A DNA stretch of 34,691 bases from a virus. Below the pieces are notes generated by a model, which was not told the origin of the DNA, did no database searches, and saw only the letters and a program-made list of their open reading frames with translations. The position numbers and the translations under genes are program-made. Below are positions 11,336 to 33,096 of the stretch, one piece after another; within the stretch, counting starts at the first letter, position 1, and the number at the start of each line of letters is the position of its first letter. The DNA lies in the IMG/VR virus record IMGVR_UViG_3300028048_000053, positions 1 through 34,691 of that record; one strand, 5' to 3'.

Positions 11336-11412
11336 CCAATCAAATTTTCCCCTTGACATTTATAAAAAAATATGTTATTATAATAGTACAAAAAGAAAGG
11401 AGATAATAAACA

Positions 11413-11577: not shown

Positions 11578-12056
11578 TGAATACCGCAATTTTGCTTTTT
11601 GTCATTTGCACTCTTGCAAATGTTGTCATTGCGACTATCAAAAGTGTAATGACCATCAAGGGCGGCAAGGTTGCCGCTTCCATCTGGAACGCTCTCAGCT
11701 ATGGCCTTTACTCCTACATTGTGATAATGACCGCAAACGCCGACATTTCCACGCTCGGCAAGGTTTTAATCACCGTAGGCTGTAACTTAATCGGCGTGTT
11801 TTTCGTTAAGTTAGTAGAGGAAAAGATGCGAAAAGATCGCCTGTGGAAAATTGAAATGACAATTTATTCCACCAACGCCGACAAGATGCACCAAGAACTG
11901 GAAAATGCTGGTATCCCCAATAACTATGTAATTGCAGGCCGCCATGCTATTTTTAATTGTTTCTGCGATACTCAAAGTGACAGCGCAAACGCCCTTGCTA
12001 TTGGCAAGACCTACAACGCAAAAACTTTTGCATCAGAAACAAAACTTAATCCCTAA
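11577..12056 (+). CDS. membrane protein with soluble C-terminal domain (159 aa)
   Basis: ORF track 11571..12056; ATG 11577 translationally coupled; 3 hydrophobic segments. Confidence 0.65.
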   Translation: MNTAILLFVICTLANVVIATIKSVMTIKGGKVAASIWNALSYGLYSYIVIMTANADISTLGKVLITVGCNLIGVFFVKLVEEKMRKDRLWKIEMTIYSTNADKMHQELENAGIPNNYVIAGRHAIFNCFCDTQSDSANALAIGKTYNAKTFASETKLNP

Positions 12057-12116
12057 CGGCATTCCCCGCCTCGGCGGGGATGTTGCCCGGGCGCAAAAAA
12101 ATTTTTAAAAAAAGTC

Positions 12117-12145
12117 TTGACAAACTGCGCAAAGTACACTATACT
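12117..12145 (+). promoter_or_regulatory. class I promoter TTGACA-N17-TATACT
   Basis: -35 12117-12122; -10 12140-12145. Confidence 0.65.
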
Positions 12146-12179
12146 GTCTACAGAAACCAAGAGAAAAGGAGATACCAAA

Positions 12180-12494
12180 ATGAAAAAGGGTTTTGTTTCC
12201 ACGATGCGCAAGGGATTCCACATGACCTTCCCCAACGGCCTGACCGTTTCCGTCCAGTGGGGTGCTGGCAACTACTGCGACAACCACTTCCCCAAGGATA
12301 TGGATTTCACCTTCTCCAAGGACGCCGAAAGCGATACTGCCGAGGTTGCTGTCATCGATCCGCAGGGTGAGTTCCTTGACCCTCAGCGGTTTTTTGACTA
12401 TGAAATCAGATCTGACGGCATGGTGGCTGGCTGGCTCGACCCCTCGCAGGTTGTTGAACTGTTGGCGAATGCGCGCGACTGGCCTAACATCTAA
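12180..12494 (+). CDS. hypothetical protein (104 aa)
   Basis: AAAAGGAGA SD; ATG 12180 in frame with ORF 12117..12494. Confidence 0.7.
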   Translation: MKKGFVSTMRKGFHMTFPNGLTVSVQWGAGNYCDNHFPKDMDFTFSKDAESDTAEVAVIDPQGEFLDPQRFFDYEIRSDGMVAGWLDPSQVVELLANARDWPNI

Positions 12495-12612
12495 GGCCAG
12501 TCTTTCGCCCGGGCACGCATAAACATTCACTGAAACTGAATAAAAATTCTTCTTGACATTTGTTTATAGGTGTGCTATACTATGTATAGTCCAGGAGAAA
12601 GGAGAGGTAGTA

Positions 12613-13014
12613 ATGGCAAGACAGTCCGCTAAAGAGCGTGAAGCGCAGATTGAGCGCACGATGAAAGCCCTTGAAGTCACAAGGGAAGAAGCCCTTGAAA
12701 TCCTCGCAGAAGATGACGAGATTGACAAGGGCGCAGATCTTCACCCCTTGACCCCCGAACAGGAAAAAGTTGTTAAAAAGATGCGGCAGGCTGACCGCAA
12801 GCCCACGGTCTACAACTGGCAGAAAAAGCGTGAGCGTAAGCCCAACGAACTCAAAAGAGAAATCATCGACGATTTGTTCGGTTTCTTTTGCGAGAACTGG
12901 CCAGAAGTGGCAAAGAATGGAAACATCATCAACCCCGAAAGACAGATTGACTTTGAGCTTGGAGGGGAGAGCTTTTCCATCACTCTGACCCAGCACCGCA
13001 AACCCAAGGCGTAA
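12613..13014 (+). CDS. hypothetical protein (133 aa), paralog of 9854-10216
   Basis: shared block EIDKGA.L..LTPEQ..V.KKMRQADRK......W...RERKPNE.KR.II and a C-terminal ERQIDFE motif. Confidence 0.7.
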   Translation: MARQSAKEREAQIERTMKALEVTREEALEILAEDDEIDKGADLHPLTPEQEKVVKKMRQADRKPTVYNWQKKRERKPNELKREIIDDLFGFFCENWPEVAKNGNIINPERQIDFELGGESFSITLTQHRKPKA

Positions 13015-13134
13015 GGCGTAAGGGGGGAACATTTGTTCCCCTATCTGCGCCCGGGCGGCCGCAAACTGCACAATTTTAATACTCTGTTTTTGTGCAAAAC
13101 ACCATCTTGCTTTTTTAAGATAGTGTGCTATAAT

Positions 13135-13215
13135 AATAATTGTCAAGGGGCTGTAAACCGCGGGGCATCCAAATAAGTCCTGTACTGCGTGGTAAGAAAT
13201 TTCAAAAAGTTTTTT
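13135..13215 (+). ncRNA. candidate sRNA or leader between promoter (TTGCTT 13100-13105 / TATAAT 13123-13128) and tRNA-Lys
   Basis: no ORF; AT hairpin TTTCAAAAA-g-TTTTTGAAA at the 3' end. Confidence 0.3.
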
Positions 13216-13239
13216 TTTGAAAATCCCCTTGACAAACTT

Positions 13240-13314
13240 GCGGCCATGGTGTAATTGGTAACACAGTAGACTTTTAATCTATCATTCGGGGTTCAAGTCC
13301 CCGTGGTCGCACCA
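13240..13314 (+). tRNA. tRNA-Lys (anticodon UUU), CCA encoded
   Basis: manual cloverleaf: acceptor GCGGCCA/TGGTCGC, D stem GTGT/ACAC, anticodon stem GTAGA/TCTAT with loop CTTTTAA, T stem CGGGG/CCCCG with loop TTCAAGT. Confidence 0.8.
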
Positions 13315-13495
13315 ATTCCTTTCCTTTTTATTATCTCTCTCTTTCTTACAAAGAACCCTGCTAAAGCGATTTAGTGGGGTTTCTTTGTAGAATCGCCCGG
13401 GCGACTGGCAAAATGCACAAAACAATTTCTAAAATTCTATCTCATTTTGTGCATTTTGCCTATTGTAATCTGTGCGCCCTTGTGCTATACTATAA

Positions 13496-13600
13496 TCGTT
13501 CCAAGGGGGAAGGCAAACAGCGTTAGGACACTTCTTCAAAGGGGGAAGGCAAACAGTGACAGGGCACTTCCCCCCTCGGACGCCGAAAAAAATTCCAAAA
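13496..13600 (+). ncRNA. two tandem copies of the CCAAGGGGGAAGGCAAACAG sRNA-like motif from promoter TTGCCT 13455-13460 / TATACT 13478-13483
   Basis: sequence family shared with 9092-9170. Confidence 0.3.
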
Positions 13601-13713
13601 AACTCTTGACAAGCCGCTTTGAGTGTGCTATAATAATGGTGTCAATGAGGGAAGCCCCTCTTGAACATAAAAAAAATATGGGTAGCGACCTACCGCTAAA
13701 GGAGTTGTGTACT

Positions 13714-14100
13714 ATGACTAACACCAAGATGACCTACAGCAAGGCTATTGCCGCCTGTATCGACCTGCTGACCACTGGCGAGACTTCTGAGAATCCCACC
13801 GAAATCGTGGAGAAGCTGACCGCCCTCTCCGAGAGCCTTGCGAAGAAGTCTGGGGCTGAGCGCAAGCCGACTGCGACCCAGGTTGCCAACGAGGGCTATA
13901 AGGCGGAGATTCTCGCCTATCTGCGTGATGTGGCCGAGCCTAAGACTGTGGGCGACATTCTCAAGGAAGTCCCCGCCGTGGCTGGTTTCTCCACTCCCAA
14001 GGTATCTGCCCTCATGAAGCAGTTGGTTGACGAGGGTAACGGCCCCGTCGAGCGTCTGACCGACAAGCGGCGCACCTACTTCCGCATCAAGGCGGAGTAA
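13714..14100 (+). CDS. winged-helix-like DNA-binding protein (128 aa), paralog of 9327-9695
   Basis: family-2 leader; ATG 13714 in frame with ORF 13447..14100. Confidence 0.7.
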   Translation: MTNTKMTYSKAIAACIDLLTTGETSENPTEIVEKLTALSESLAKKSGAERKPTATQVANEGYKAEILAYLRDVAEPKTVGDILKEVPAVAGFSTPKVSALMKQLVDEGNGPVERLTDKRRTYFRIKAE

Positions 14101-14240
14101 GCCCCCTGCGCCCATCCCCTCCCCTGCAATAGTGGGGGAGGGGCGCGCCCGGGCGAAAAAAATTTTTTTTAAAAACCCCTTGACAAACCTCTATAAATGT
14201 GCTATACTTTAGATGTTCCAAGAGGAAAGGAGAGAGTGTA

Positions 14241-14480
14241 ATGGAAAAGAAGTTTAACATGGTAGTGACCCTTACCAATGGTAAAGTCCTGCGCCACTAC
14301 GGACTTTCCTTGCGCATGGCGGCAACTATGAAATTGCACTATCAAGAGAAGTACCCTAACACCCTTGAAGAAATCGAAACCGTTTACGCAGGGACGAACA
14401 AAAGAGCTACGGCGCTTTGCTATTTCATTGAAGATGGAGAAAACGATCCTATCGCTTTCTATGAGCGTTACGGCTGGTAA
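14241..14480 (+). CDS. hypothetical protein (79 aa)
   Basis: class I promoter 14183-14215; AAAGGAGAG SD; in frame with ORF 14199..14480. Confidence 0.7.
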   Translation: MEKKFNMVVTLTNGKVLRHYGLSLRMAATMKLHYQEKYPNTLEEIETVYAGTNKRATALCYFIEDGENDPIAFYERYGW

Positions 14481-14494
14481 AAGGAGGAAATAAA

Positions 14495-14740
14495 ATGGCT
14501 ATTTCTATTAAGCGTGAAAAGAACGAGCGCGGCGTGACGGTCGGCTCTCTCAAAGTGGGCGACACTTTCATGTATGACAACCGTATCGGCGTTATCGTTG
14601 ACCGCAATGGTCACTGTTTTCCCATGGATTTTGCAACCTGTGCCACCTTTCACAAACATCCCTGGACATCCGAAGCACTTCTTCCGCAGGAGATTGTTCT
14701 GCCTATCGAGGTCGAAATGACTTGCAAGGTCGTGGGCTAA
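14495..14740 (+). CDS. hypothetical protein (81 aa)
   Basis: AAAGGAGGA SD then ATG 14495; ORF track. Confidence 0.75.
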   Translation: MAISIKREKNERGVTVGSLKVGDTFMYDNRIGVIVDRNGHCFPMDFATCATFHKHPWTSEALLPQEIVLPIEVEMTCKVVG

Positions 14741-14857
14741 GCCTTTCCCCGCTTCGGCGGGGAAATCGCCCGGGCAAAAAACTTTTTTCAAAAACCTATT
14801 GACATTTTCCTAAGTATGTGCTATACTATAATCACAAAAGGAAAGGAGATAATCAAA

Positions 14858-15130
14858 ATGACCTATTCCATCCAGATTTATCGCATGAATGCTGGCTCTT
14901 GGGAAACCTTTGTTCAGTTTACCCCCGTCGTCTTTGACGAAATGATCGAAGCTGGCAAGGCTATGTTCGTCAATCCTCTACTGTCTGCGGAGAATGTTGC
15001 TATCGTTGATGACACAACTGGCGAAGTTCTCTGGGATGCCTGTTCCGATGATGAGGACTGTGAGCCTGCGGACATTGATGATGATTGCGGCTTTGACCCC
15101 TACGAGGGCTGTTTCACCTACGACTGCTGA
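14858..15130 (+). CDS. hypothetical acidic, Cys-containing protein (90 aa)
   Basis: AAAGGAGA SD; ATG 14858 in frame with ORF 14816..15130. Confidence 0.7.
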   Translation: MTYSIQIYRMNAGSWETFVQFTPVVFDEMIEAGKAMFVNPLLSAENVAIVDDTTGEVLWDACSDDEDCEPADIDDDCGFDPYEGCFTYDC

Positions 15131-15244
15131 CCCCCTACAAGGGGGTCAGTTTGCCCGGGCGAAAAAATTTTTAAAAAGGTCTTGACAAACTCTCAGTAAT
15201 GTGTTATACTGTATTCAGAAATCAAAGGAAAGAGGGAATAAACC

Positions 15245-15457
15245 ATGGTGTGTCCTAAGTGCGGCCCTGGGGCAGCTGTAATGTCCGATGAGTGTATTGA
15301 TGTTGAGGAGTACGACGATGATAACATTGCCGTAACCTACGAGGGGACTTGTCTGTGGTGCAAACGCAAATACCAATGGACGGAAATCTATAAATATAGC
15401 CGTATCAAAAATATTATTGAAATTGGTACAGCTCCGCAGGAGGAAGAAGAGAACTAA
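15245..15457 (+). CDS. Zn-ribbon protein (CPKCG...CLWCK), 70 aa
   Basis: ORF track; class I promoter 15185-15215. Confidence 0.7.
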   Translation: MVCPKCGPGAAVMSDECIDVEEYDDDNIAVTYEGTCLWCKRKYQWTEIYKYSRIKNIIEIGTAPQEEEEN

Positions 15458-15589
15458 CCCCCCTCTTTTTCTTCCCCCTGCGCCCGGGCGCAAAAATTTT
15501 TTTTCAAAACCCCCTTGACAACCCTCCAAGAGTGTGTTATAATAAAGGCACATTGAGGGTGGTGGCCTAACACCAAAGGAGAATTTGTT

Positions 15590-16195
15590 ATGAACAAGAG
15601 TGACTTTTTCGAGCGTGAAATCCAGTTCATTGAGGACATTGACCTCCAAGACTTTGTTCGCTTTTTCTTCAATGAAAGATGCGGCGACTGGTTTTGGAAG
15701 TCTGGGGCTTCCAGTTCTGGGAAATATCATCCCCAGTTCACCAAGGGCGAGGGTGGACTTGTGCGCCATACTAAAGCCGTTGTGTGGGTCTGTGAGGAAC
15801 TTCTGCGCATGAGTTCCTACGCCTACATGAAAGACATTTACAAGGACTACGCAAGGGTCGCCTGCCTGCTTCACGATACACGCAAGTATGGCGGCGGGGA
15901 TGAAGAGGATAAAAGTTATTATCCACGTCATGGTGAAGCCGCCGCAAATGATGTTGGTGTGGCGTGGCGAGAGTTTTTCCACTGTCATTCCTGCCCCGAA
16001 TTGCTTTTGATGGCTATTCACTCCCACATGGGACAGTGGACGGAAAACAGAGAGGACAGACCCTTTACCAACATTGACCGCCTGGTACATCTGTCGGACT
16101 ACATCGCAAGCCGTCCTTTCTGGGACATTCCCGACATTACCACCGAATACAACGAAGCCAATGCAAAGATGATTGAAGATTCTCTGCCTTTCTAA
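15590..16195 (+). CDS. HD-domain phosphohydrolase (201 aa)
   Basis: H..H...LLHDTRKYG...H motif arrangement typical of the HD superfamily; family-2 leader; ORF track. Confidence 0.6.
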   Translation: MNKSDFFEREIQFIEDIDLQDFVRFFFNERCGDWFWKSGASSSGKYHPQFTKGEGGLVRHTKAVVWVCEELLRMSSYAYMKDIYKDYARVACLLHDTRKYGGGDEEDKSYYPRHGEAAANDVGVAWREFFHCHSCPELLLMAIHSHMGQWTENREDRPFTNIDRLVHLSDYIASRPFWDIPDITTEYNEANAKMIEDSLPF

Positions 16196-16286
16196 TCCCC
16201 CTCCCCTCTGTCCCAGTGACAGAGGGGAAATCGCCCGGGCGAAAATTTCCTCTTGACAAGAGGCCAAAAGTATGCTATACTGTATT

Positions 16287-16400
16287 TACAATTCACGGAG
16301 AAATCCGTTTTACATACCTGCGGACTGCCGAACAGGCTTTTTCCAAAATTTCTCATGGGCCTGCATAGGATAACATGACTTTCTGCGGGAATTTTTGAAA
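16287..16400 (+). ncRNA. candidate sRNA cassette (promoter TTGACA 16255-16260 / TATACT 16278-16283; no ORF)
   Basis: only very short ORFs; hairpins CGGAGAAATCCG and CCTGCGGACTGCCGAACAGG. Confidence 0.25.
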
Positions 16401-16466
16401 ATAATACTTGACAAACAAGCACAAGTATGTTATAATAAAGGCACAAAAAGGAAAGGAGATAATAAA

Positions 16467-16694
16467 ATGCTCGATCACATTGGCGGCATCCCCGATGGAC
16501 ACATTGTAGAGTTTCCGCACTCTGCGCGCACTTTCATGAAGGTCTGCACAAGAGATGGGCAGGGCGGAGTTGTTGACATCACTACAGGTGAGCTGATTAT
16601 GATAAGCGACCTGCCGCGATACGGTATTGATGTATGGTGCTCTGAGCACTACGGAGAAAGGGCTACTATTCAGTACGAAGTAGAGGACGATTGA
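16467..16694 (+). CDS. hypothetical protein (75 aa)
   Basis: AAAGGAGA SD; ATG 16467 in frame with ORF 16395..16694. Confidence 0.7.
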   Translation: MLDHIGGIPDGHIVEFPHSARTFMKVCTRDGQGGVVDITTGELIMISDLPRYGIDVWCSEHYGERATIQYEVEDD

Positions 16695-16793
16695 CCGTCC
16701 TCTTGGCCCGGGCGAAAAATTTTTTTAAAAACCTCTTGACAAGTGATTAGCTTTGTGCTATAATGAAGTCACAAAAGGAAAGGAGATACAAAA

Positions 16794-17075
16794 ATGAGAG
16801 CAACAGGTATTGTAAGACGCATTGATGACTTCGGCAGAGTTGTCATTCCGAGGGAAATTCGCAAAACTCTCAACATTCGCGAGGGCGACCCCCTCGAATT
16901 CTTCACCGACCCCGACGAGAGGGCTGTGTGCTTCAAGCCCTATCTGCCCTACTCCGAGCCGTGGCGTATGCTCGAAGATGCCGCAGAGACCATGCGTGAC
17001 AGCGAGGACTTTCACGAGTTCGCCGCCGATGTTTACGCCCTTGCGCGTAAGATTCGGAAATCTGCGCAGGGCTGA
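16794..17075 (+). CDS. AbrB/SpoVT/MazE-like regulator (93 aa), paralog of 1707-2000
   Basis: MRATGIVRRIDDFGRVVIPREIRKTLNIREGDPLEF matches the swapped-hairpin pattern. Confidence 0.7.
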   Translation: MRATGIVRRIDDFGRVVIPREIRKTLNIREGDPLEFFTDPDERAVCFKPYLPYSEPWRMLEDAAETMRDSEDFHEFAADVYALARKIRKSAQG

Positions 17076-17216
17076 TAAATACCCCCGCCTTGGCGGGGGA
17101 AATCGCCCGGGCGCAAAAGTTTTTTCAAAAAGGGCGTTGACAAAGGTATAATCTTGTGCTATAATATCAATGTAAACAAAAGGGTTGCGACCTAACGCAA
17201 GAAAGGAATTGATACT

Positions 17217-17510
17217 ATGAATTTCTGGATTGTTATTTTGACCATCTACATTTTCTTTACTATTACCCTGTTCTTTGTGTCTGCCGCTCAGGCGTTCGAA
17301 GTTCGGCGGCGTATCTACGCAAAAGTTGGTAAGAATTACTATGACTCTTTTTCCAAGCGAAGCATTGTTGAAAAAATTGTTAAACTTTTAACCAGCTTTT
17401 TCTTGTCTGCCATTCCTATTCTTAACTTTTTTGTAACTTTTCATGTGATTATTCATGCTGAGGAATTAGTAAATAGTAGTGTGCAGAAATGGCTTGCAGA
17501 ACATAAATAA
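17217..17510 (+). CDS. membrane protein (97 aa)
   Basis: family-2 leader; ORF track; two long hydrophobic segments. Confidence 0.65.
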   Translation: MNFWIVILTIYIFFTITLFFVSAAQAFEVRRRIYAKVGKNYYDSFSKRSIVEKIVKLLTSFFLSAIPILNFFVTFHVIIHAEELVNSSVQKWLAEHK

Positions 17511-17643
17511 GGGTAAGGGGGCTTAATGTCCCCTGCTGCCCGGGCGCTAAAAAAATCAAAAAAAGGTATTGACAAGCGGCGCAATCTGTGCTATACTATA
17601 CACAGTTAAGGGGTGGCGGCCAAACGCTAAAGGAGATAAAAAA

Positions 17644-17808
17644 ATGTTTTACGAACTGAGAGATGCGATTTTCAATCGTCTTGCCTGCTGGCTGATGAAG
17701 CACTGTCACTGTTGGTCGATGGTGTTCTATACCGCCTGCCGCAGATACTACCCTGCCAATGTAAAATGTATGTATGAATCATGGGCTGAGGAAATGGGGG
17801 TGAAGTGA
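17644..17808 (+). CDS. small Cys/His-rich protein (54 aa)
   Basis: family-2 leader + AAAGGAGA SD; in frame with ORF 17569..17808. Confidence 0.6.
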   Translation: MFYELRDAIFNRLACWLMKHCHCWSMVFYTACRRYYPANVKCMYESWAEEMGVK

Positions 17809-18023
17809 TGTTCAGAGTTTGGTTTGATGATTTGGAAGTAGCCATTGCGGCGTTCCGCAAGGTCGTGATGGACGAACTGTTCGTTTCTATTAGCGGCAAT
17901 CTCTACGGCGATTTCATTTTTGAGATTTCCGAGGGTATCAAGTACACCGTGAAGCACAACGATTTCAGCGTGTGGCGCAATTTCGGGGATTGGAGAAAAC
18001 CCGATTGGAGGGAAATCAAGTAA
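17808..18023 (+). CDS. hypothetical protein (71 aa), translationally coupled (TGATG)
   Basis: ORF track 17805..18023. Confidence 0.6.
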   Translation: MFRVWFDDLEVAIAAFRKVVMDELFVSISGNLYGDFIFEISEGIKYTVKHNDFSVWRNFGDWRKPDWREIK

Positions 18024-18145
18024 TGCCATCCCTCTATTATACCTATTCTCATTGCTCGTTGTCGCCGCTTCAATTTATTATCGCATTTGCTATTGGTGCG
18101 GCGATTGGTGCGGGAATTATTTTCTACTTTACGAATAAAGGGTGA
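18023..18145 (+). CDS. possible single-TM peptide (40 aa), coupled via TAATG
   Basis: ATG overlaps the upstream stop; hydrophobic FIIAFAIGAAIGAGIIFYF; ends inside a 24-bp palindrome terminator. Confidence 0.35.
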   Translation: MPSLYYTYSHCSLSPLQFIIAFAIGAAIGAGIIFYFTNKG

Positions 18146-18161
18146 ATAATTATTCACCCTT
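18138..18161. repeat. perfect 24-bp palindrome AAGGGTGAATAATTATTCACCCTT
   Basis: seen directly; shorter GAATAATTATTC copy at 10234-10245. Confidence 0.7.
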
Positions 18162-18256
18162 TATTCATTGCCCGGGCGCAAAAATTTTTTTTCAAAAACC
18201 CCTTGACAAGTTGCTGTAAATGTGCTATACTACATTCAGAAAGTGAGGGATGCAAG

Positions 18257-18433
18257 ATGCGTGATTTTAAATGGACTGACGAACTGTGGTGCGTTGTAAA
18301 AAACGATGGTAGCTTTGCGGGTGCTCCCTGTCTGAGTTGGGAGGAGGCGCGAGAACTTCAGGCGCAGTACGAAAACAGTCAAATGTATCTGTTGAAACCT
18401 GTCGGATGGATTTCTAAGGAGGATAAAAAATGA
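18257..18433 (+). CDS. hypothetical protein (58 aa)
   Basis: class I promoter 18208-18237; in frame with ORF 18203..18433. Confidence 0.6.
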   Translation: MRDFKWTDELWCVVKNDGSFAGAPCLSWEEARELQAQYENSQMYLLKPVGWISKEDKK

Positions 18434-18789
18434 AGCTGACTAAAAAGTTTTTCTGCCCTGTGAACGGATGGGACTGCCCTTACTGGAAAGAGGACGGTTT
18501 CTGCTCCATGGTCGATAATGGGGATGACCCCGTTATGGAGTGCGACGATGCCGCCACTTTCTGGGAACCCGACGAGGATTACTTCGTGTGGGCTGACGAG
18601 GACGGCGCAACCTACGATGTGGAATGGCTCTTGGAGCTTGGCTATCACTTCGTCAATGGTGAGCCTGTGAAAGCTCCCTCTTCCGACTTCATCAAGGCGA
18701 CTTTGGAAAAAGTTCTCGAACATTGGGATGAAGAGGTCAGTTTTCCTCCCGACTTTGATGAAATGGGGTCAAATGGGTTTAGGGGGTAA
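18430..18789 (+). CDS. hypothetical acidic Cys-containing protein (119 aa)
   Basis: GGAGGATAAAAAATG; ORF track; terminator 18790-18825. Confidence 0.75.
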   Translation: MKLTKKFFCPVNGWDCPYWKEDGFCSMVDNGDDPVMECDDAATFWEPDEDYFVWADEDGATYDVEWLLELGYHFVNGEPVKAPSSDFIKATLEKVLEHWDEEVSFPPDFDEMGSNGFRG

Positions 18790-19282
18790 ATAAGAGGGGG
18801 GTAAATGCCCCCTCTACTTTCGCCCGGGCAACTGGCTTCAAGGCTTTAAATGACTAAAGTGAACCGGCCGCTGACAGGGGCAGCGAGCCGAACTCTCGCC
18901 CAAACACACCATATGCAAATTTTTTGCTCAATCTAGCAGGTCTTAGACCGCCCGGGCATTTTCCCGAAACATGCGGGGAGGAGCGCAGCGACTCCCATAT
19001 GGCCCGCCTAACGGTTGAAAGTGAGGGGCACCCACCCAGCAAAAACTTTCTCGCTGCGCGAGAAACCGGCCTCTGGGGCCGTTTTTTAGCCCCTTGCGGG
19101 CTTGATTTTTATAAAAAATTATGTTATAATATAAAAAAACGGCTGCTTTTTACCAAAATTTACCATTTTTTGTTGTTTTTTATAAAAAAATATGTTATAA
19201 TGTAAAAAAAAGACTAAAAATGGGCGGCCCCAAGGGCCGTTTTCTCTTTTTTCGCCAAAATTTCAGAGCATTATATCGGAGT

Positions 19283-19608
19283 ATTAGGCAATTTCGGGCT
19301 CTGACTAGGCAATTTCATTTAAAATATACCCCTCGTGAAAAATTGTTCATTAAGGTAATTCAAACATTTAAAATCGGCATTTTAAGCCTTTTTTCGGCCT
19401 AACGGCCGAAAAAGCTGGTCCAGAAGAGGAAGATAAAAGAGACCATGGGAAGGTTTAAAGTTTGCGGCAACCGCAAAATTCTTCTCTGATATACTGGGGC
19501 ATTAGACAATTTTAAGCGCTGATTAGGCAATTTCATTTAACAGATACCCCTTCTGAAAAATTACAGTGCTAGGTAAATGAAACATTTAAAATCGGCATTT
19601 TAAGCCGA
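19283..19608. repeat. two copies (19283-19392 and 19497-19608) of an imperfect ~90-bp direct repeat, each ending in palindrome TTAAAATCGGCATTTTAA
   Basis: patchy similarity by eye, roughly half of positions over ~85 bp, strongest in the terminal palindrome; flanked by AT-rich promoter-like elements and hairpin terminators. Confidence 0.6.
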
Positions 19609-19710
19609 TTTCTCGCTTTGAGACCTCTGACCGAGGCGGCCGCAGGTTTGCAATTTTTAAAAAATTTTGATATAATATATATAGAAAATAAAGAAAGGAA
19701 TAAAAAAACT

Positions 19711-20085
19711 ATGGTAACTAAGAATGATATTATTTCTCGCCTCCAGAAGGGTGAGGATATTGATGCTATCGCCGCAGAGTTCACTAATCTGCTCAATGAC
19801 GCGTCGAAAGAGTACACAGCCAAGCACAAGAAGAATGCGGCTGCCGAGGAGCTGGCCGTGGCGTTCAACGACTTCCTTGAGTCCTACTATCCCAACCTTG
19901 TGAAGAACGCACCTATCACTCCGGATGAGCTGATTGAGCTCTTTGATGCGCTCTCCGAGCTAGTGGAGACGCTTGGTGACCTTACGTCTATTCTGGCTCC
20001 GGGTAAGCCGGAGACTAAGTCCAAGAGCAAGGAAGATATGGATAAGGAGACAATTGAGGCGTTTCTGCGGTCGCTGCAGCTGTGA
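19711..20085 (+). CDS. hypothetical protein (124 aa); first gene driven by a class II (AT-rich) promoter
   Basis: TGATATAATATATATAGAAAATAAAGAAAGGAAT leader; ATG 19711 in frame with ORF 19618..20085; terminator 20106-20138. Confidence 0.7.
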   Translation: MVTKNDIISRLQKGEDIDAIAAEFTNLLNDASKEYTAKHKKNAAAEELAVAFNDFLESYYPNLVKNAPITPDELIELFDALSELVETLGDLTSILAPGKPETKSKSKEDMDKETIEAFLRSLQL

Positions 20086-20105
20086 GAAGAAAATATCTAA
20101 GTTAT

Positions 20106-20138
20106 AGAGGGACAGAGCTAATGCTCTGTCTCTTTTTG
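20106..20138 (+). terminator. intrinsic terminator AGAGGGACAGAGC-taat-GCTCTGTCTCT + T5
   Basis: perfect stem then T-tract. Confidence 0.7.
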
Positions 20139-20197
20139 TTTGGCTGCGCGAACCGGAGGTAAAAAAGGGCCTCTGGGGTCGGCTCTGCTCACGCAAC

Positions 20198-20350
20198 GAA
20201 TTTTAGTATTTTTATATAGAATTTTTAGTATTTTTATATAGAATTTTTAGCATTTTTATTAACGAATTTTAGCATTTCTATTTAAAATGTTTAGCATTTT
20301 TATATAGAGTTTTAGTATTCTTTATATAGTATTTTAATAGTTCTATACAA
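20198..20350. repeat. about 7 tandem copies of a 22-bp AT-rich unit GAATTTTTAGTATTTTTATATA (iteron-like)
   Basis: seen directly. Confidence 0.7.
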
Positions 20351-20384
20351 CGAACTTCAACCTTTCTTAAATAACTCCATATGC

Positions 20385-20450
20385 CATTTCATTTCATTTT
20401 TCTATTATCTTCTTCGACCCTTCCCCACATTTTCATTTCATTTTTCTATT
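20385..20450. repeat. 2 copies of CATTT(T)CATTTCATTTTTCTATT
   Basis: seen directly. Confidence 0.6.
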
Positions 20451-21029
20451 CCCCGAAGATTAGTATTTATACTCCACCGTTCTTCCGGCATAATTATATT
20501 TTGGCTTAAAAACCCTAATCAGCCCTAATTCCATACTCTATACATCACGCTTTGTTATCTTACTATTACTCTTTATCTTGGAAACATCAATCAGTTTTTT
20601 AAATTCAATTTTATTTTCTTTATTTATCTAATTATAAAAAATTAATTCTTTACTACATGTTTCTATACCCCTTTTATGTTCTTCCCATCTTTCCTCAAAA
20701 TCTCTCATTGTCATACCTACATATACTAATTCATCATTTTCATAAATACCATAGACTCCATAAGATATAGTCTTTTCCTATTTAATATGATATTTTTTCT
20801 CATAAATCTTTACTTCTTGCTATAAAGCATAATAAAAATTATCTATTTCTTTCTATGCTATCGGAATTAAATGTTTTAAAATTATCTAAATATAATGATT
20901 TAAATCTCCTTTACTCTTTTTCGTTTGAGTTTGCTTAAAAAAATAACTAACAATATTCTAAAAAGAATCTAAATCTATAAACTCCCAGTATTTACCACAA
21001 GACAATATATAACCTGGCAGATTACTTCT

Positions 21030-21227
21030 CTATTCTTTAGTTAAAAAACAAACATAAGAATCATGACTACAACTATCTAATTTATAATTACTATCTAATT
21101 TTGGCATCTGCTTAATTATATATTGGTATACAATATACATATTTTTTCGATTCAAACTTTTATGCTCACATTTCATACATTTTTCAAATTCTTCTTGTGA
21201 AACCAACTTTATAACCTCCTCATACAT
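21030..21227 (-). CDS. possible small Cys/His protein (65 aa)
   Basis: C-terminal part of minus ORF 21030..21548; upstream part of that ORF is the low-complexity repeat array. Confidence 0.3.
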   Translation of the reverse strand: MYEEVIKLVSQEEFEKCMKCEHKSLNRKNMYIVYQYIIKQMPKLDSNYKLDSCSHDSYVCFLTKE

Positions 21228-21239
21228 TACCGAGCATCC

Positions 21240-21510
21240 TAAAAATACAAAACTTGTTTTGTATTTTTTTGTACAAAAACTTGTTTTTTGTACAAAAAGT
21301 TGTAAAAATACAACATTTTTGTTGTATTGTAAGACTAAAGATAGCTTATACAAAAAATACAAAAATACAAAAATTCTTGTATCGTAGAGTCTAAAAACTA
21401 CAATTTTCGTACAAAAAACATAAGCATTTATACAAAAATACATAATAGATAAATACAATAAAAATACAATCGTACAATTTTCATACAAAAATTCGTACAA
21501 AAAATCTATA
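21240..21510. repeat. array of GTACAAAAA / TACAAAAATAC direct repeats interleaved with palindromes
   Basis: palindromes TACAAAAC-ttg-TTTTGTA, GTACAAAAA-cttg-TTTTTTGTAC, AATACAACA-ttttt-GTTGTATT read directly. Confidence 0.65.
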
Positions 21511-21511
21511 A

Positions 21512-21886
21512 TCAAAATATAGCATTGGGGTCCTTGCGTTGTACCCATCCTTTTTTATGCTGTATAGTATTCAACTTTACTCCAAAATAATCGGCTATCT
21601 CTTGCGCGCTCATATTATTTCTAGCCATTTTGTATACTTCGGCATCGGTAACTTTGAGACGAACTTTGCCTCCGTTGCGCTTTTCTTCATACTTAGCAAT
21701 ACTGACATCTATACGCCCCTTCAATAAATTTACATAAGAGTTTATACTGGGGTCATCCGTATATTTCTATTCTAAACGACAGCCATATCTGATTAAATCA
21801 GCAATGATTTTGTCCTAACTTTCCACTGGCAACTAATCAATAGCTTCTAACCAATCACTGTGTACAATAAAAGTATTATCAGCCAT
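21512..21886 (-). CDS. HTH protein (124 codons; possible ArpU/RinA-like sigma-region-4-type regulator) with three in-frame TAG codons
   Basis: ATG 21886-21884 preceded by AAGGGGGA SD; in-frame TAG at 21833-35, 21815-17, 21767-69 (plus coordinates); no TAA/TGA for 124 codons in AT-rich DNA; C-terminal ORF 21512..21724 alone has no start or SD. Confidence 0.55.
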
Positions 21887-21890
21887 TCTA

Positions 21891-22070
21891 TTAGTCCCCC
21901 TTGGCGCCAAAAATTAAGTCTAATTTTTTTTCTAATTCTGGCGTATCTTCAAAAACCCAACACCAATACTATGGCTAAAATGGATTCTTTATAGTTTCAA
22001 CGGGATATACTCCCATTTTCACCAACTTTAGCATTATTTTGCGAGAATAAATAATTCGATTCTTTAGCAT
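21891..22070 (-). CDS. small protein (59 codons) with two in-frame TAG codons
   Basis: ATAGGAGTG SD 9 nt before ATG 22070; TAG at plus 21975-77 and 21969-71; stop TAA 21893-21891 abuts the SD of the next gene. Confidence 0.45.
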
Positions 22071-22086
22071 TAATTAGCACTCCTAT

Positions 22087-22221
22087 TTACTTAGATTCTT
22101 GTCTTTGTATAAAATATTTTATCGCTTTTCTAACAACTTGCGACATAGATAAATCATGAGCAGAAGCATACTTCTCAATCCATGCTTTGTCCTCTTCTGA
22201 AATTCTTATAGAAATAAGCAA
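22087..22221 (-). CDS. ribbon-helix-helix (CopG/Arc-like) DNA-binding protein (~44 aa)
   Basis: ISIRISEEDKAWIEKYASAHDLSMSQVVRKAIKYF matches the beta-strand plus two-helix RHH pattern; TTG 22221 (or GTG 22230) start; first gene of the minus operon. Confidence 0.55.
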   Translation of the reverse strand: MLISIRISEEDKAWIEKYASAHDLSMSQVVRKAIKYFIQRQESK

Positions 22222-22257
22222 TATGTTCACATCCTTTCACATCTATTTGAAAATTCT

Positions 22258-22277
22258 TTGTAATACATTGTAATACA
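22258..22277. repeat. tandem direct repeat TTGTAATACA x2 in divergent promoter region
   Basis: seen directly, immediately upstream (minus sense) of the RHH gene. Confidence 0.6.
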
Positions 22278-22342
22278 TTGTCCAACACTTTTAACATTTT
22301 AATATAATTTTCTGTCGTTAAAGACCGTAAGTACTAAATCCT

Positions 22343-22370
22343 TTTCAGAAGGCTGTAAGCCTTCTGAAAA
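22343..22370. terminator. bidirectional hairpin TTTTCAGAAGGCT-gtaa-AGCCTTCTGAAAA
   Basis: perfect 13-bp stem flanked by T-run and A-run. Confidence 0.6.
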
Positions 22371-22434
22371 ATTTGAAACATATAAAAAAATAATATATAA
22401 TATATATAGAAGATAAAAAAGGAGGTTTCCATAT

Positions 22435-22686
22435 ATGTACCCTTTTGTTTGCGGCGTCCGCTATTTCCCCGCATTCCTAGACCCTGAGAAGGAAGTAACC
22501 GAACAGCACACCAATGTTTTAATCTACGCCCCCAACTTCGCAGAAGCTACCGCCCAGGTTGAAGCCTACTTTGGTGACGAGCTCATTGCGGTAACTGTAG
22601 AAGCCATTGCGGACACCGGCACCCTGTTCGAGGTCTCCGACGAAATCGCTAACAGCCTCACTCTGGGCGAAGGATGTATTACCTAA
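22435..22686 (+). CDS. hypothetical protein (83 aa)
   Basis: class II promoter + AAAAAGGAGG SD; ORF track. Confidence 0.75.
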   Translation: MYPFVCGVRYFPAFLDPEKEVTEQHTNVLIYAPNFAEATAQVEAYFGDELIAVTVEAIADTGTLFEVSDEIANSLTLGEGCIT

Positions 22687-22916
22687 TGTTCCAAAAGAAA
22701 TGTGAAACTTGTCAAATCTATATCCCCCAACAGCAAACCTGTCAGCTAATGCCCAACTTCCAGGGCCGCATCAAACCGACAGACTATTGCAGCCAGCACA
22801 AAGATTTTCTCTACCATTGTGTTTACTGCGGCGCCGCCCTATTAGACGTATTTGTGCGCGTTGAAGAGGACGGTAGTGTACGCACAATCTGCGGCAACTG
22901 CGTCAATAGAACCTAA
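22686..22916 (+). CDS. Zn-ribbon protein (CETC...CSQH...CVYCG...CGNC), 76 aa
   Basis: ATG overlaps upstream TAA (TAATG); in frame with ORF 22674..22916. Confidence 0.6.
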   Translation: MFQKKCETCQIYIPQQQTCQLMPNFQGRIKPTDYCSQHKDFLYHCVYCGAALLDVFVRVEEDGSVRTICGNCVNRT

Positions 22917-22960
22917 AAACCTGGCCGGCCGCAAGCTCTTTTTTTTGAAAGGAAAGTTCT

Positions 22961-23389
22961 ATGTCTAAAGTCGAAAATGAAGTAACGGAGTTCCGCAGCC
23001 ACTTCAACCCCGAATCTACTGCAAATCTTTTCACTCATGGACAATGCTTCTGGTTTTCATTCATTCTCCATGAACGCTTCAAACCCTTTTACCCAACATA
23101 TATATTCTATAATCCGATAGACAATCATTTCGCCACGGAGATTTATGGCGAACTCTACGATATTACAGGCAAGCTTGAAAAGGACTCTAAATGGATTGAG
23201 TGGAATGACTTCATCCTCCTGGAGCCTCTTGCGGCCGCCCGTATATATCGAGATTGCATCTTCCAAGAGACTCCAGAAGCATGGGACAATCATTTTTATA
23301 TGCAAAAGAAAATGCCCTGGATTTACTGTCCCACGGGAGCAGCATTCGGAGATATAACAAATTTTAAAACTATTACCAAGGAGGAATAA
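22961..23389 (+). CDS. hypothetical protein (142 aa)
   Basis: ORF track; GAAAGGAAAG SD. Confidence 0.7.
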   Translation: MSKVENEVTEFRSHFNPESTANLFTHGQCFWFSFILHERFKPFYPTYIFYNPIDNHFATEIYGELYDITGKLEKDSKWIEWNDFILLEPLAAARIYRDCIFQETPEAWDNHFYMQKKMPWIYCPTGAAFGDITNFKTITKEE

Positions 23390-23391
23390 CA

Positions 23392-23682
23392 ATGTCTATG
23401 GTGCCGCGTGCCGCAATTATTCTCGGCTACCCAATTAACACTTGGGACAACACTTGGGATGATTTTGAAGACTTCATAATCTCTGACGTGCATGAGCAAA
23501 ACTATTTTGGTAAGGTTTTAACGACCATAGATGAACATACAGAACCCATTCTTCTTGATGACGTAGTAGGTTCGGTTTGGACTTATGATGAAATCTTTGC
23601 GGCGTGGGATAAGTTTGTTGAGGAGCACCCCGATTATAAGGAAATCCCTCTGCGGAAATGGCTAATCTTTCAGTGGGATTAA
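23392..23682 (+). CDS. hypothetical acidic protein (96 aa)
   Basis: ORF track; CAAGGAGGAATAACAATG. Confidence 0.75.
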   Translation: MSMVPRAAIILGYPINTWDNTWDDFEDFIISDVHEQNYFGKVLTTIDEHTEPILLDDVVGSVWTYDEIFAAWDKFVEEHPDYKEIPLRKWLIFQWD

Positions 23683-23703
23683 GCGGAGATTAACAATCTC
23701 CAC

Positions 23704-23732
23704 TTTATTTTTATAAAAAAATATTATATAAT
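23704..23732 (+). promoter_or_regulatory. class II promoter TTTATT-N17-TATAAT followed by ATATATAGAAAATAAGAAAAGGAG leader
   Basis: same architecture at 25868-, 28366-, 30485-, 30835-, 32674-, 34651-. Confidence 0.6.
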
Positions 23733-23756
23733 ATATATAGAAAATAAGAAAAGGAG

Positions 23757-24485
23757 TTGCATACCGTGGTTGCCAAATCATTCCAGTCCTTAGAGATTCT
23801 TGACGAGCCCCATGCAGTCGGCGGCAAGCCCGCTTTGTATGTTACAGTGCGCACCAAGACTGGCGGTACTCGTGTAGTTAGATGGTATAGCGATAAAGAG
23901 TATGCCAAGATGTATCCTGGCGAGGCTCCTGCGGCGACCCAGCCTCTGCGACCTCTCAAGGAAGTCCTTGGCTTTGAGAAGGGCTACATTACTATCTTCA
24001 AGGGAAATACCTACGAAGATAGGGATTATTTCAAACTCAATGCGGCTCGCTATCACAAGTTGTGGGGGTGGTATTTCATTTCTACCGACGAGCTTCCCAC
24101 CGATATTCCCGAGGATGTAACCCCCATTCGGCTTAATTGGGAAGATATTAGTACCGATGATAACACCCTAAAGAATGATGCGGCAATTACCGCTGCTGTT
24201 GAATCTCTTATCTATGAACCCGATAACAGCGAGTATCAGGGTGAGGTTGGGGATAAGCTCGAACTTGTCGTTGTGGTAGAAAAAGCTGTCGATCTCGATG
24301 GCTACTTCGGTCGTTCTCGAATGCACATCTTTAGGGACTATGACGGGAACTGCTATGTCTGGACCACGTCCGCGCGGAACTGGGAACCGCAGACCGAGCA
24401 TCATATTATCGGAACCGTAAAAGACCATAAGCTGTACAAAGGAACCAAGCAGACCGTGCTCACGCGCTGCCGGAGTCTAGATTAA
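23757..24485 (+). CDS. hypothetical protein (~240 aa; start TTG 23757 or, more likely, GTG 23766 which sits 9 nt after AAGGAG)
   Basis: ORF track; no ATG with SD nearby. Confidence 0.65.
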   Translation: MHTVVAKSFQSLEILDEPHAVGGKPALYVTVRTKTGGTRVVRWYSDKEYAKMYPGEAPAATQPLRPLKEVLGFEKGYITIFKGNTYEDRDYFKLNAARYHKLWGWYFISTDELPTDIPEDVTPIRLNWEDISTDDNTLKNDAAITAAVESLIYEPDNSEYQGEVGDKLELVVVVEKAVDLDGYFGRSRMHIFRDYDGNCYVWTTSARNWEPQTEHHIIGTVKDHKLYKGTKQTVLTRCRSLD

Positions 24486-24499
24486 GGAGGGATAAGACG

Positions 24500-24652
24500 A
24501 TGCGCAGATACTACAAATATTGCGTAATGGGCAGAGAGCGCAATAAAGACACGGGCATTCACCCAATTAGCATCCATATCACTTTTTTGGGAGCTGTGAT
24601 TGGATATATGTTTGCCCTGCAAGATTTTAAAGATGTTTATTTGATTAAGTAA
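24500..24652 (+). CDS. small hydrophobic protein (50 aa)
   Basis: TAAGGAGGGATAAGACGATG; stop TAA 24650-52; below ORF-track cutoff. Confidence 0.5.
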   Translation: MRRYYKYCVMGRERNKDTGIHPISIHITFLGAVIGYMFALQDFKDVYLIK

Positions 24653-24665
24653 GGAATTGATGTAA

Positions 24666-25829
24666 ATGGGTTCTAACTCAAAACAGTATTTGATTACAAA
24701 CTGGAAAGCCCTTTTGGAAGACTTTTCAGAACAGGTTAAAGAAGGGCGCTATACAAAAATGCCCTACACAGAATGGCGGGAATTTAATTTGGTAAAGCCG
24801 CCTGAGCGATTTTATTTCTACACTCACACTCCCTCTGAATCGGAGTGGTATGTAAGTTTCCAGTTCAATGGTAAGCATCATACCTATAATGTAAAAACAG
24901 AAGAAGGAGAAGACTCTTTTGGTGATTTTCTTCTTGATGTAGGTAAAAATATAGCTCATTGTGATTACGCTTGCTTGCCAGAAGGCAAAATTTACGAGGT
25001 TAGGATACCAGCCTCGGCTTATCCGTCACTTAATTGTAGTGATACAATAGAATTTACCATCCAAGATGAAGATTGGTTAAAAGAATGGAATAGTATAATT
25101 TCTACCCCTAATAATATAACTATTGATAACACAACAAATAAAAAGGAGGATACAAAAATGAACGACATGTTTAACTTTGATTTTGGCCCTGCTTCTGGCT
25201 ACAATTTCCGTATGAGTCCCTACGGTCTTGCGGTCCGCACCGAGAAGAACGGCTGGGTTGCTTATAATACCCAGACCAATGAGCTCATGGATGTCAATGT
25301 GCTTAACTTTGACATGGATGGCATGATTTATAAGATGCCTGTTGCACTTGCGGCCATCCAGAAGGGCGATATTCTGATGCATTGCGGCAAGCCCGTCTTT
25401 GTGCGCGGTGTGGGGAGTGACACCGTCCAGGTGGTAGACTACGCAAACGCCTCTGTGTCCAGTATTCTGCCCGTGAAGAGCCCGTTCGGGTTTAATTTCT
25501 TCGTTAAAATTGTTTCTCTGATGGACTTCCAGAATATCAACGCCAGCAATGAGAATCCTTTTGGCAATATGCTGCCTTTTATCATGATGAAGAATTCTAA
25601 GCACTCTAGCGACGAGCGTCCTGACATTGACCCCATGGTACTCATGTTTATGATGAATGGTGGCAATGCTAACTTTATGCAGAACCCCATGATGATGTAC
25701 CTCCTTCTGAGCAAGGGGGAGAATGGCGATATGCTCCCTTTTCTTCTCCTGACCGGAATGGGCGCGTCTACTACCCCAGTAGCTTCCGGTCAGGCCCCTG
25801 TCGCTACGTCCAACCAGGCGAACGCATAA
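24666..25829 (+). CDS. hypothetical protein (387 aa) with Met/Phe/Pro-rich low-complexity C-terminal half; strong in-frame internal SD+ATG at 25158
   Basis: ORF track; internal AAAAGGAGGATACAAAAATG. Confidence 0.65.
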   Translation: MGSNSKQYLITNWKALLEDFSEQVKEGRYTKMPYTEWREFNLVKPPERFYFYTHTPSESEWYVSFQFNGKHHTYNVKTEEGEDSFGDFLLDVGKNIAHCDYACLPEGKIYEVRIPASAYPSLNCSDTIEFTIQDEDWLKEWNSIISTPNNITIDNTTNKKEDTKMNDMFNFDFGPASGYNFRMSPYGLAVRTEKNGWVAYNTQTNELMDVNVLNFDMDGMIYKMPVALAAIQKGDILMHCGKPVFVRGVGSDTVQVVDYANASVSSILPVKSPFGFNFFVKIVSLMDFQNINASNENPFGNMLPFIMMKNSKHSSDERPDIDPMVLMFMMNGGNANFMQNPMMMYLLLSKGENGDMLPFLLLTGMGASTTPVASGQAPVATSNQANA

Positions 25830-25936
25830 CTTTCGCAACAAACTAATCCTAAAGGGAGAACAAAAGTTCTCCCTTTACTTTTATAAAAAAATATTATATA
25901 ATATATATAGAAAGTTAAGAAATGGAGGCTTCACAA

Positions 25937-26122
25937 ATGGATAATTACAGAGACGACATTAATCGCATCCTGCGCAACGGCATTGAAATTGCCTGGGACA
26001 AGGGGTACATGGAAGACGATGTTTCGGAATTTGTGCAGAAGCATTTTCCCGACGAGGAAGATGCGGGTTGGGAAAAGGCTTATGAGCTTATTCGTGAAGC
26101 CATGCATACATATTTTGATTAA
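25937..26122 (+). CDS. hypothetical protein (61 aa)
   Basis: class II promoter; AATGGAGG SD; ATG 25937 in frame with ORF 25922..26122. Confidence 0.65.
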   Translation: MDNYRDDINRILRNGIEIAWDKGYMEDDVSEFVQKHFPDEEDAGWEKAYELIREAMHTYFD

Positions 26123-26142
26123 TTAAGAGGGATTAATAATCA

Positions 26143-33095: not shown

Positions 33096-33096
33096 T

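Follow-up and report, generated by a model that had tools for sequence, protein, structure and literature searches.

The DNA analysed here, referred to below as the window, is a stretch of 34,691 nucleotides (nt) of the IMG/VR virus record IMGVR_UViG_3300028048_000053, and its positions 18790-19710 (~0.9 kb) form a gene-free boundary region flanked by the genes for a 119-amino-acid and a 124-amino-acid (aa) protein. The evidence set out below firmly establishes that two transcription modules meet in this region, that terminators and promoters mark its limits and that its architecture is conserved in a family of uncultivated phages, and equally firmly that a module duplicated within it is under strong sequence constraint and that its hairpins are under structural constraint. 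We tentatively favour the reading that it is a transcribed, terminator-punctuated, non-coding control region comprising a short leader RNA and two units resembling small RNAs (sRNAs), acting most likely at the RNA level.

There is no plausible open reading frame (ORF) in 18790-19710, even when TAG is taken as a sense codon, and the idea that the region might be coding under alternative stop-codon tables was rejected, as it stayed non-coding. A sequence-only reading of the same DNA, made by a model before our analysis, had seen no credible protein gene across 600 bp; this holds, and the gene-free stretch is wider than had been thought. On the whole that reading was borne out in part, several of its descriptions being corrected below and its interpretation finding partial support: the proposed regulatory switch between transcription programmes is supported by the change of promoter class at this place and by a junction layout that is kept in relatives.

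The change of promoter class is abrupt. About 45 near-perfect sigma-A promoters (class I, TTGACA-17-TGnTATAMT) lie between 50 and 18231, all on the + strand and each before one small gene, and most of them are preceded by the palindrome CGCCCGGGCG and an A/T tract; this part of the window is a very dense early module of host-takeover-like character. The second class (class II) is an AT-rich family, TTGATTTTTTATAAAAAATAATATATAATATATATAGAAA, with 16 copies in the window, two of these in the early part, and a related pattern yielded 7 sites against 0.05 expected. Because the last class I promoter stands at 18203 (ending at 18231) and the class II family starts at 19102, the boundary region sits exactly at the junction of the two classes.

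Three predicted class II promoters, P1, P2 and P3 (Table 1), have hexamers near TTGACA/TATAAT at a spacing of 17 bp, within the 16-18 bp expected for sigma-70/sigma-A. P1 and P2, which are 88% identical over 43 nt and lie 71 nt apart, together represent a duplicated copy of a special subtype, P_A. They correspond to the two AT-rich promoter-like elements of the sequence-only reading, which are thus real and belong to the 16-copy family. That each is followed by a terminator within 30 nt is correct for P2, whose terminator starts 20 nt past its -10, but not for P1, after which P2 comes next. The CGGCCC-type terminator with a T-run that had been described there also stands, at 19222-19252; the fold of 19208-19252 has -14.3 kcal/mol, and termination at 19222-19242 predicts RNAs of ~43 nt from P2 and ~115 nt from P1. 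What had been missed is P3, which is predicted to drive the gene at 19711 and has GCGGCCGC just 5' of it (19636-19643), together with the terminators at 19067-19087 and 19088-19102, immediately 5' of P1. A GC-rich stem-loop followed by a U-run is present at 19067-19081 (with T6) and at 19222-19242 (with TCTCTTTTTT), whereas the tails of the hairpins at 19461-19477 and 19589-19611 are merely U-rich and interrupted. The number of terminator-like sites was 9, vs 2.8 in shuffled sequences.

Table 1. Features of the boundary region, by position in the window. Promoters and terminators are predicted.
Feature	Position	Strand	Remarks
Palindrome CGCCCGGGCA	18821-18830	.	Second copy at 18949-18958
Conserved GC hairpin CGGCCGCUG-ACAGGGG-CAGCG(A)GCCG	18865-18890	+	~20 nt 5' of the first CATATG motif
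Conserved motif CCATATGCAAATTTTTTGCTCA	18909-18930	+	Unique in the window
TTTCCCGAAAC	18960-18970	+	Near the CATATG motifs
Second CATATG	18996-19001	+	Relatives have 2-4 CATATG units at this place
Intrinsic terminator CGGCC-TCTGG-GGCCG + T6	19067-19087 (stem-loop 19067-19081)	+	Would close early (class I) transcription
Second terminator hairpin	19088-19102	+	Overlaps the -35 of P1
P1, class II, special subtype P_A, TTGATT-17-TATAAT	19102-19130, through A7 run to 19139	+	10/12 consensus; TGT before the -10; TG present
P2, duplicate of P1, TTGTTT-17-TATAAT	19173-19201, through A8 run to 19211	+	9/12 consensus
Terminator behind P2, GGGCGGCCC-CAA-GGGCCGTTT, tail TCTCTTTTTT	19222-19242, with tail to 19252	+	9-bp stem, 6 GC pairs
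Repeat unit 1, 122 nt	19272-19393	+	TAGGCAATTTC at 19285 and 19306 (21 nt apart); ends in TTAAAATCGGCATTTTAAGCC + T6
Perfect 10-bp hairpin TTTTTCGGCC-TAAC-GGCCGAAAAA	19390-19413	+	Under structural selection
Terminator-like hairpin TTTGCGG-CAA-CCGCAAA (19461-19477) with U-rich tail	19461-19487	+	Inside mini-ORF 19446-19490
Repeat unit 2, 122 nt	19490-19611	+	Hairpin AAATCGGC-ATTTTAA-GCCGATTT at 19589-19611
P3, generic class II, TTGCAA-17-TATAAT-ATATATAGAAA	19648-19676	+	10/12 consensus
P3 and 5' untranslated region with ribosome-binding site of the first class II gene	19648-19710	+	No differences in L042 or L024
First class II gene, 124 aa	19711-20085	+	Its homologue opens the post-boundary genes in all relatives examined

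The window is the start of the 171,985-bp metagenomic contig ENA ERZ27252073 k141_3465, to which it is identical with a 6-nt offset, and a 1.5-kb Logan contig from a second run matches the boundary region at 100% identity. The window opens (1-40) with a homopolymer of 25 A (16-40), directly 5' of the first early promoter, which is probably the reason why assemblies end there; the ENA contig begins 6 nt later. Nothing similar to the boundary region was found by a DNA search of 50,697 deposited phage records, in which the sole match to the window lies elsewhere (299 nt at 73.6% identity to Enterococcus phage EFP01), and protein searches of the phage record collection with the 119-aa product and a 560-aa product gave no match; there are no annotated relatives. 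In Rfam 15, with gathering and E-value thresholds, no family matched the boundary region and only tRNAs passed in the window; the best sub-threshold score in 18700-20200 was that of Phe_leader (24.3 bits against a threshold of 55).

Relatives were drawn from metagenomic collections (labelled L003, L004 and so on): homologues of the 119-aa protein led to 15 IMG/VR loci and several closer ENA/Logan contigs, an exact search with a degenerate DNA motif added 13 further IMG/VR loci and one true family member in a metagenome-assembled genome (MAG), and a search with the repeat-unit motif gave two JGI contigs. Of 19 bacterial-genome matches to the CATATG motif, L059 alone truly belongs to the family, the others being at chance level; it was binned in a Lachnospiraceae MAG, which hints at Lachnospiraceae or other Clostridia as hosts. 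A JGI metagenome search with the 124-aa protein returned no closer relatives, and a search with the first gene, aimed at the upstream edge of the early module, returned no relative. Four independent Logan contigs of close relatives (L020-L023) start inside P3, at a distance of 36-45 nt from the 124-aa gene. Short-read assemblies break at this multi-copy class II promoter, so that public contigs under-represent the boundary.

One layout is common to about 20 relatives, which come from IMG/VR, ENA, Logan, JGI and the Lachnospiraceae MAG. The last class I gene is followed by the palindrome CGCCCGGG, then by a GC-rich hairpin and, ~20 nt on, by CCATATGCRAAWWTTTTnnTCA, with 2-4 CATATG units in total and a TTCCCGAAA motif; next comes P_A, with an A7-9 run after its -10. 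Behind P_A there is either another promoter at a distance of 60-72 nt or a non-coding spacer, 150-500 nt long, that does not align between relatives, and the series ends with the last class II promoter and the homologue of the 124-aa protein. Promoter pairs spaced by 60-72 nt, as in the window, occur in L003, L004, L005, L007, L008 and L015, and one member, L059, has no recognisable P_A.

Several of these conserved parts lie at 18821-19030, just outside the coordinates covered by the sequence-only reading, and belong to the same boundary cassette, represented by ~20 related loci. The CGCCCGGG motif of the palindrome at 18821 also stands before most class I promoters, and it opens the boundary region in relatives. 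The hairpin at 18865-18890 is found at an equal offset in 17 of 19 lineages with differing inner-stem sequences. Across lineages its pairing is preserved in 83% of cells (70.5% when shuffled), both sides have changed in six of the nine pairs, and its covariation score is 0.282 vs 0.095 (reached in 0/500 shuffles), with slid controls at 0.094 or below. Compensatory substitutions are thus seen in this hairpin, as they are in the one at 19390-19413. The hairpin-CATATG element (18821-19030) has no match in Rfam. In six lineages a class I promoter stands immediately 5' of it, and because of this position the element would be transcribed in those lineages. The promoter that drives it in L004, L031, L033, L036, L037 and L040 is of a special early type, exemplified in the window at 13431-13498, where TTTTGTGCATTTTGCCTA abuts the -35 box.

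Downstream of the tandem promoters, the two repeat units are in register at a spacing of exactly 218 nt, without an indel, and share 96/122 positions, against 59/122 for the best of 30 shuffles. The direct repeat of the sequence-only reading is therefore real, and its description as ~90 bp of patchy similarity is wrong. The palindrome noted in each copy was recovered (TTAAAATCGGCATTTTAA, at 19368-19385 and 19586-19603, with 0 expected by chance), and so was the perfect 10-bp hairpin, at 19390-19413. The 13-codon ORF with a hairpin also exists (19446-19490, with the hairpin at 19461-19477), but the ORF is not conserved, as a 1-nt insertion frameshifts the copy in L042. Single-sequence folds of the units are weakly better than those of shuffles (z = -1.1 to -2.4). 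No convincing sigma-A promoter was found inside the units on either strand, except an extended -10-like TCTGATATACT at 19485-19495, on the 5' edge of unit 2. Two candidates for what a unit encodes were rejected: a structured RNA, as there was no consensus fold among four sequences, and a peptide gene, as the similar one-frame peptides have no start codon and are interrupted by TAG in copy 2 and by TAA in L041.

The selective constraint on unit 2 is apparent from L042, a JGI contig ~90% identical to the window over 19352-20465. The two differ at 2/122 positions in unit 2 (19490-19611), at 4/221 from unit 2 through P3 to the ATG (19490-19710) and at 106/893 in the remainder of the alignment (Fisher p = 4.6e-7 for 19490-19710 against the remainder). 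This block is more conserved than the coding sequence of the 124-aa gene, which has 27/375 differences (7.2%), mostly at third codon positions. A second relative that covers copy 2, the ENA contig L024, differs from unit 2 at 2/117 positions. By contrast, the spacer between the units (19394-19489) is fast-evolving and keeps both of its hairpins (fold z = -2.9). In L042, the hairpin at 19390-19413 has the paired changes T19394C with A19409G and C19398T with G19405A as well as two loop changes, and in the hairpin at 19461-19477 the loop alone is altered (CAA to CCG). The 18-nt near-palindrome is broken in L042 by T19587C, which leaves the overlapping hairpin AAATCGGC/GCCGATTT (19589-19611) unchanged. 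The distant relative L041 has a single unit, in which CTGACTAGGCAATTTCATTTAA...CATTTAAAATCG is conserved and the palindrome is degenerate, ~55 nt past its first P_A; the unit is followed by a hairpin with a U-rich tract and by a second P_A, giving a promoter-to-terminator unit of ~210 nt in a layout as in the window. In L025 and L027 a TAGGCAA motif lies 85-95 nt behind P_A. The region is accordingly neither absent from relatives nor unconserved in them: copy 2 exceeds the neighbouring gene in conservation, and a homologous unit stands in place in L041.

From these observations we infer that the promoters are active and that the units function as RNA and contribute to the switch from the early to the second phase. 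In such a scheme, early transcription by the host RNA polymerase would end at the terminator 19067-19087, and P_A, represented here by P1 and P2 with an A-run at the start site, would fire a short leader that stops at 19222-19242. The two 122-nt units, together with the selected hairpins, would yield sRNA-like transcripts of ~110-200 nt, arising by read-through or from the extended -10 at 19485-19495, and P3 would then start the first class II gene. A function at the RNA level is favoured because the hairpin substitutions are compensatory, because the palindrome can be dispensed with whereas the terminator-like hairpin at 19589-19611 is kept, because all parts are co-oriented behind strong promoters, because L041 has a clean order of promoter, unit and terminator, and because similar long non-coding regions rank with the most abundant transcripts in a Kayvirus phage, in which non-coding regions of 525-570 bp account for ~10% of phage reads (PMC7698491).

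Several points weigh against this RNA-level reading. Unit 1 lacks a convincing promoter of its own, and read-through from P2 into it would be limited by the intervening terminator. No U-run terminator follows the equivalent P_A promoter in relatives, so that the terminator directly behind P_A is lineage-specific here, and a tiny transcription unit of the kind that had been described is present in the window (at P2) but confined to this lineage. No Rfam family matches the region. RNAalifold on four unit sequences gave -3.8 kcal/mol with 0 compensatory pairs, a weak negative given so few sequences, and a search of the 34.7-kb window for antisense targets of the units, the spacer and the P2 leader produced chance-level matches alone. 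Finally, the near-perfect conservation from unit 2 into P3 and the 11-mers spaced by 21 bp suit a protein-binding DNA platform almost as well.

It is nearly as likely that the region is such a DNA-level regulatory platform, in which the 122-nt units bind a phage regulator that controls P3 or P_A and thereby times the second module. Two occurrences of TAGGCAATTTC per unit at 21 bp amount to two helical turns, the units show constraint on primary sequence with no RNA covariation, the conserved block runs unbroken from unit 2 through P3, and the distance from unit to promoter is alike in the window (~57 nt from unit 2 to P3) and in L041 (~65 nt from the unit to the second P_A). Moreover, TTGCCTA, the reverse complement of the TAGGCAA core of the units, abuts the -35 of the special early promoter in the window (13456) and in eight relatives (L004, L016, L027, L031, L033, L036, L037 and L040), and this may be a lead towards a regulator of the units. 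The regulator might be an early AbrB-like protein, or one of the ribbon-helix-helix or helix-turn-helix (RHH/HTH) proteins encoded at 21.5-22.2 kb (22087-22230, 21512-21721). The early module encodes small DNA-binding proteins of AbrB/MazE type (SpoVT-AbrB fold, PF04014) at 1695-2000 and 16794-17075, which are candidate regulators for the boundary motifs. However, the first 11-mer of each pair is not conserved, reading TAGACAATTTT in copy 2 and giving way to a GC hairpin in L041, the palindrome is not maintained in L042 and L041, and the 7-mer is not enriched window-wide (5 found vs 4.2 expected). Unit 1 is not upstream of any good promoter, and the compensatory changes seen in the hairpins next to the units speak for a function as single-stranded RNA.

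A broader role for the cassette as a whole, which would combine the covarying GC hairpin, 2-4 CATATG, a promoter that starts in an A7-9 run and the constrained 122-nt unit into a checkpoint between the early module (the part to enter or be expressed first) and the rest of the genome, is in our estimate unlikely. The cassette would then be cis-acting and family-wide, with the boundary region as one half of it. If this were true, the checkpoint might be, for example, an origin primed by transcription, or a stop-and-go signal in genome entry that is driven by transcription or proceeds in two steps, and the cassette would be a new type of element in uncultivated, Clostridia-associated large phages with in-frame TAG codons.

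More doubtful still is a replication origin, in which the repeats (CATATG and TAGGCAATTTC) beside an 87% A+T stretch with tandem promoters would be activated by transcription, as in the T7 primary origin or T4 oriF/oriG. The element does lie in an intergenic site between modules, with 2-4 co-oriented CATATGCnnnTTTTTnGCTCA repeats directly 5' of an AT-rich segment of ~125 nt and two promoters 60-72 nt apart, an arrangement that is conserved, and in six lineages an early promoter lies directly 5' of the hairpin-CATATG element. However, no DnaA box (TTATCCACA with at most one mismatch) occurs in 18790-19711, and their number window-wide is 11 vs 9 expected; the CATATG spacing is irregular (30-106 nt), the cumulative GC skew has no minimum here, and L059 does without a recognisable P_A. 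An array closer to the usual iteron type (22 bp x 6.9, at 20198-20347) lies 0.5 kb downstream, near the most AT-rich DNA and genes for DNA-binding proteins.

We consider it less probable again, and improbable overall, that the region is a physical landmark, be it the inner edge of a long terminal repeat, a site of packaging or cutting, or an injection stop as in T5 at the end of the early module that enters first. An early module of at least 18.8 kb with small genes and ~45 strong, co-oriented, host-type promoters resembles the host-takeover modules in the terminal repeats of SPO1-like phages and Kayvirus (PMC6445280) and the first-step-transfer region of T5, the latter ending in a large untranslated stretch of repeats and palindromes that is conserved among relatives (bioRxiv 10.1101/866236); short palindromes (CCCGGG, CATATG, GCGGCCGC) are clustered here as well, and the source contig begins where the early module begins. 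The contig start, however, is the A25 homopolymer, an ordinary cause of assembly breaks, and we rejected it as evidence for a genome end since the homopolymer explains it. The boundary is mid-contig in L004, the DnaA boxes that define the T5 model are absent from 18790-19711, and no terminase gene was recognised among ten neighbouring proteins scanned.

A functionless spacer, consisting of a recent tandem duplication and decayed promoter and terminator remnants between modules, is very improbable and disfavoured, for although the gap between P_A and the final promoter can be anything from ~0 to 500 nt long and does not align between lineages, and TTTTCCCGAAAC at 18960 resembles the class I promoter spacer of relatives and so suggests a dead promoter, unit 2 is significantly more conserved than flanking coding sequence, the hairpin has compensatory substitutions and the unit is kept at the same place in the distant L041.

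Other features of the window are of interest in their own right. The array at 20198-20347, iteron-like in appearance, consists of a 22-bp tandem repeat, GAATTTTAGTATTTTTATATA, in 6.9 copies with 80% matches. It lies just past the terminator of the 124-aa gene, where DNA of 24% G+C borders it, and L023 and L042 have it conserved; an origin and a partition site are its candidate roles. Within the early module, ~570 nt without a convincing ORF follow the class I promoter at 10756 (10784-11350), contain TAGGCAGTTTT twice (10959, 11094) and may represent another non-coding transcript. Seven tRNA genes are present: one in the early module, a tRNA-Lys (13240-13314) that directly follows a class I promoter, and six (Tyr, His, Trp, Ile x2, Lys) at 32730-34641, interleaved with class II promoters. 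The in-frame stops inside called genes (9881-29192) are all TAG (15/15), whereas the 32 called genes end in TAA (24) or TGA (8) and never in TAG. In the AT-rich module on the minus strand at 20460-22070, in-frame TAGs number 8 in a GIY-YIG-like gene of 255 aa, 3 in a DUF6291-like gene of 124 aa and 2 in a gene of 59 aa; in relatives such TAGs are fewer and stand at other positions, and no suppressor tRNA was found in the window. This pattern suggests either recoding of TAG (code-15-like) or a decaying island of homing endonucleases.

The boundary is best described as a well-documented regulatory intergenic region rather than as a demonstrated new system, and the conserved boundary cassette as a whole is its most promising part. 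If the RNA-level reading is right, this phage family parts its two promoter classes by a conserved non-coding cassette instead of a protein gene, and the 122-nt unit and the hairpin-CATATG element would be non-coding elements of a new sort, acting as RNA or as DNA bound by protein, through which the infection programme is timed. Since neither Rfam nor the deposited phage genomes contain a match to them, they offer concrete targets for mapping transcripts and for studies of binding, and the boundary is the obvious place to seek a terminal-repeat edge or an origin in a lineage known only from metagenomes.

Among known systems, the PR'-tR' unit of phage lambda, whose short terminated '6S' transcript ahead of the late genes is extended through Q antitermination, is similar in that a strong promoter is followed by an efficient intrinsic terminator within ~40-115 nt and heads a later-expressed block. 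No Q-like protein was found here, though no search was aimed at one. The lambda unit differs in that the promoter-proximal terminator here is unconserved and each downstream gene group has its own class II promoter, and a lambda-like unit is unlikely because the terminator is lineage-specific and the downstream genes have promoters of their own. The T7 primary origin consists of the tandem promoters 1.1A and 1.1B followed by an AT-rich segment, and the window likewise has two tandem promoters ~70 bp apart in very AT-rich DNA near the boundary of early and middle genes; those of the window, however, are host sigma-A-like rather than of the phage-polymerase type, and a better iteron candidate is available at 20198-20347.

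The T5 injection-stop region (iss) and the boundary region are both large and gene-free, both close a block of small genes that are expressed first, and both are crowded with direct and inverted repeats as well as palindromes, in a layout conserved among relatives (bioRxiv 10.1101/866236). The boundary region is thus of the untranslated, repeat-rich and conserved kind seen in T5, but lacks the ordered DnaA boxes, has no sequence similarity to the T5 region and carries strong predicted promoters and terminators.

With lncRNA1 and lncRNA2, highly transcribed non-coding regions of Staphylococcus Kayvirus phages, it shares the character of a gene-free stretch of 0.5-0.6 kb in a large phage (PMC7698491). 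In both cases the early genes have consensus sigma-70-type promoters with a TRTG extension, and a second promoter class has a long AT-rich -10; the Kayvirus regions are driven by ordinary promoters (PMC7698491). There is no sequence similarity between the two, and the Kayvirus regions adjoin tRNA genes and not an early-module boundary. The SPO1-like phages (Herelleviridae) differ from the phage studied here in that its class II promoters keep a -35 box, its genes have in-frame TAG codons and its protein and DNA relatives in the GenBank phage collection amount to the 299-nt EFP01 match. They resemble it in the host-takeover module itself, in which dozens of small genes, each with a near-consensus host promoter and a terminator, are followed by genes with another type of promoter (PMC6445280, PMC7698491).

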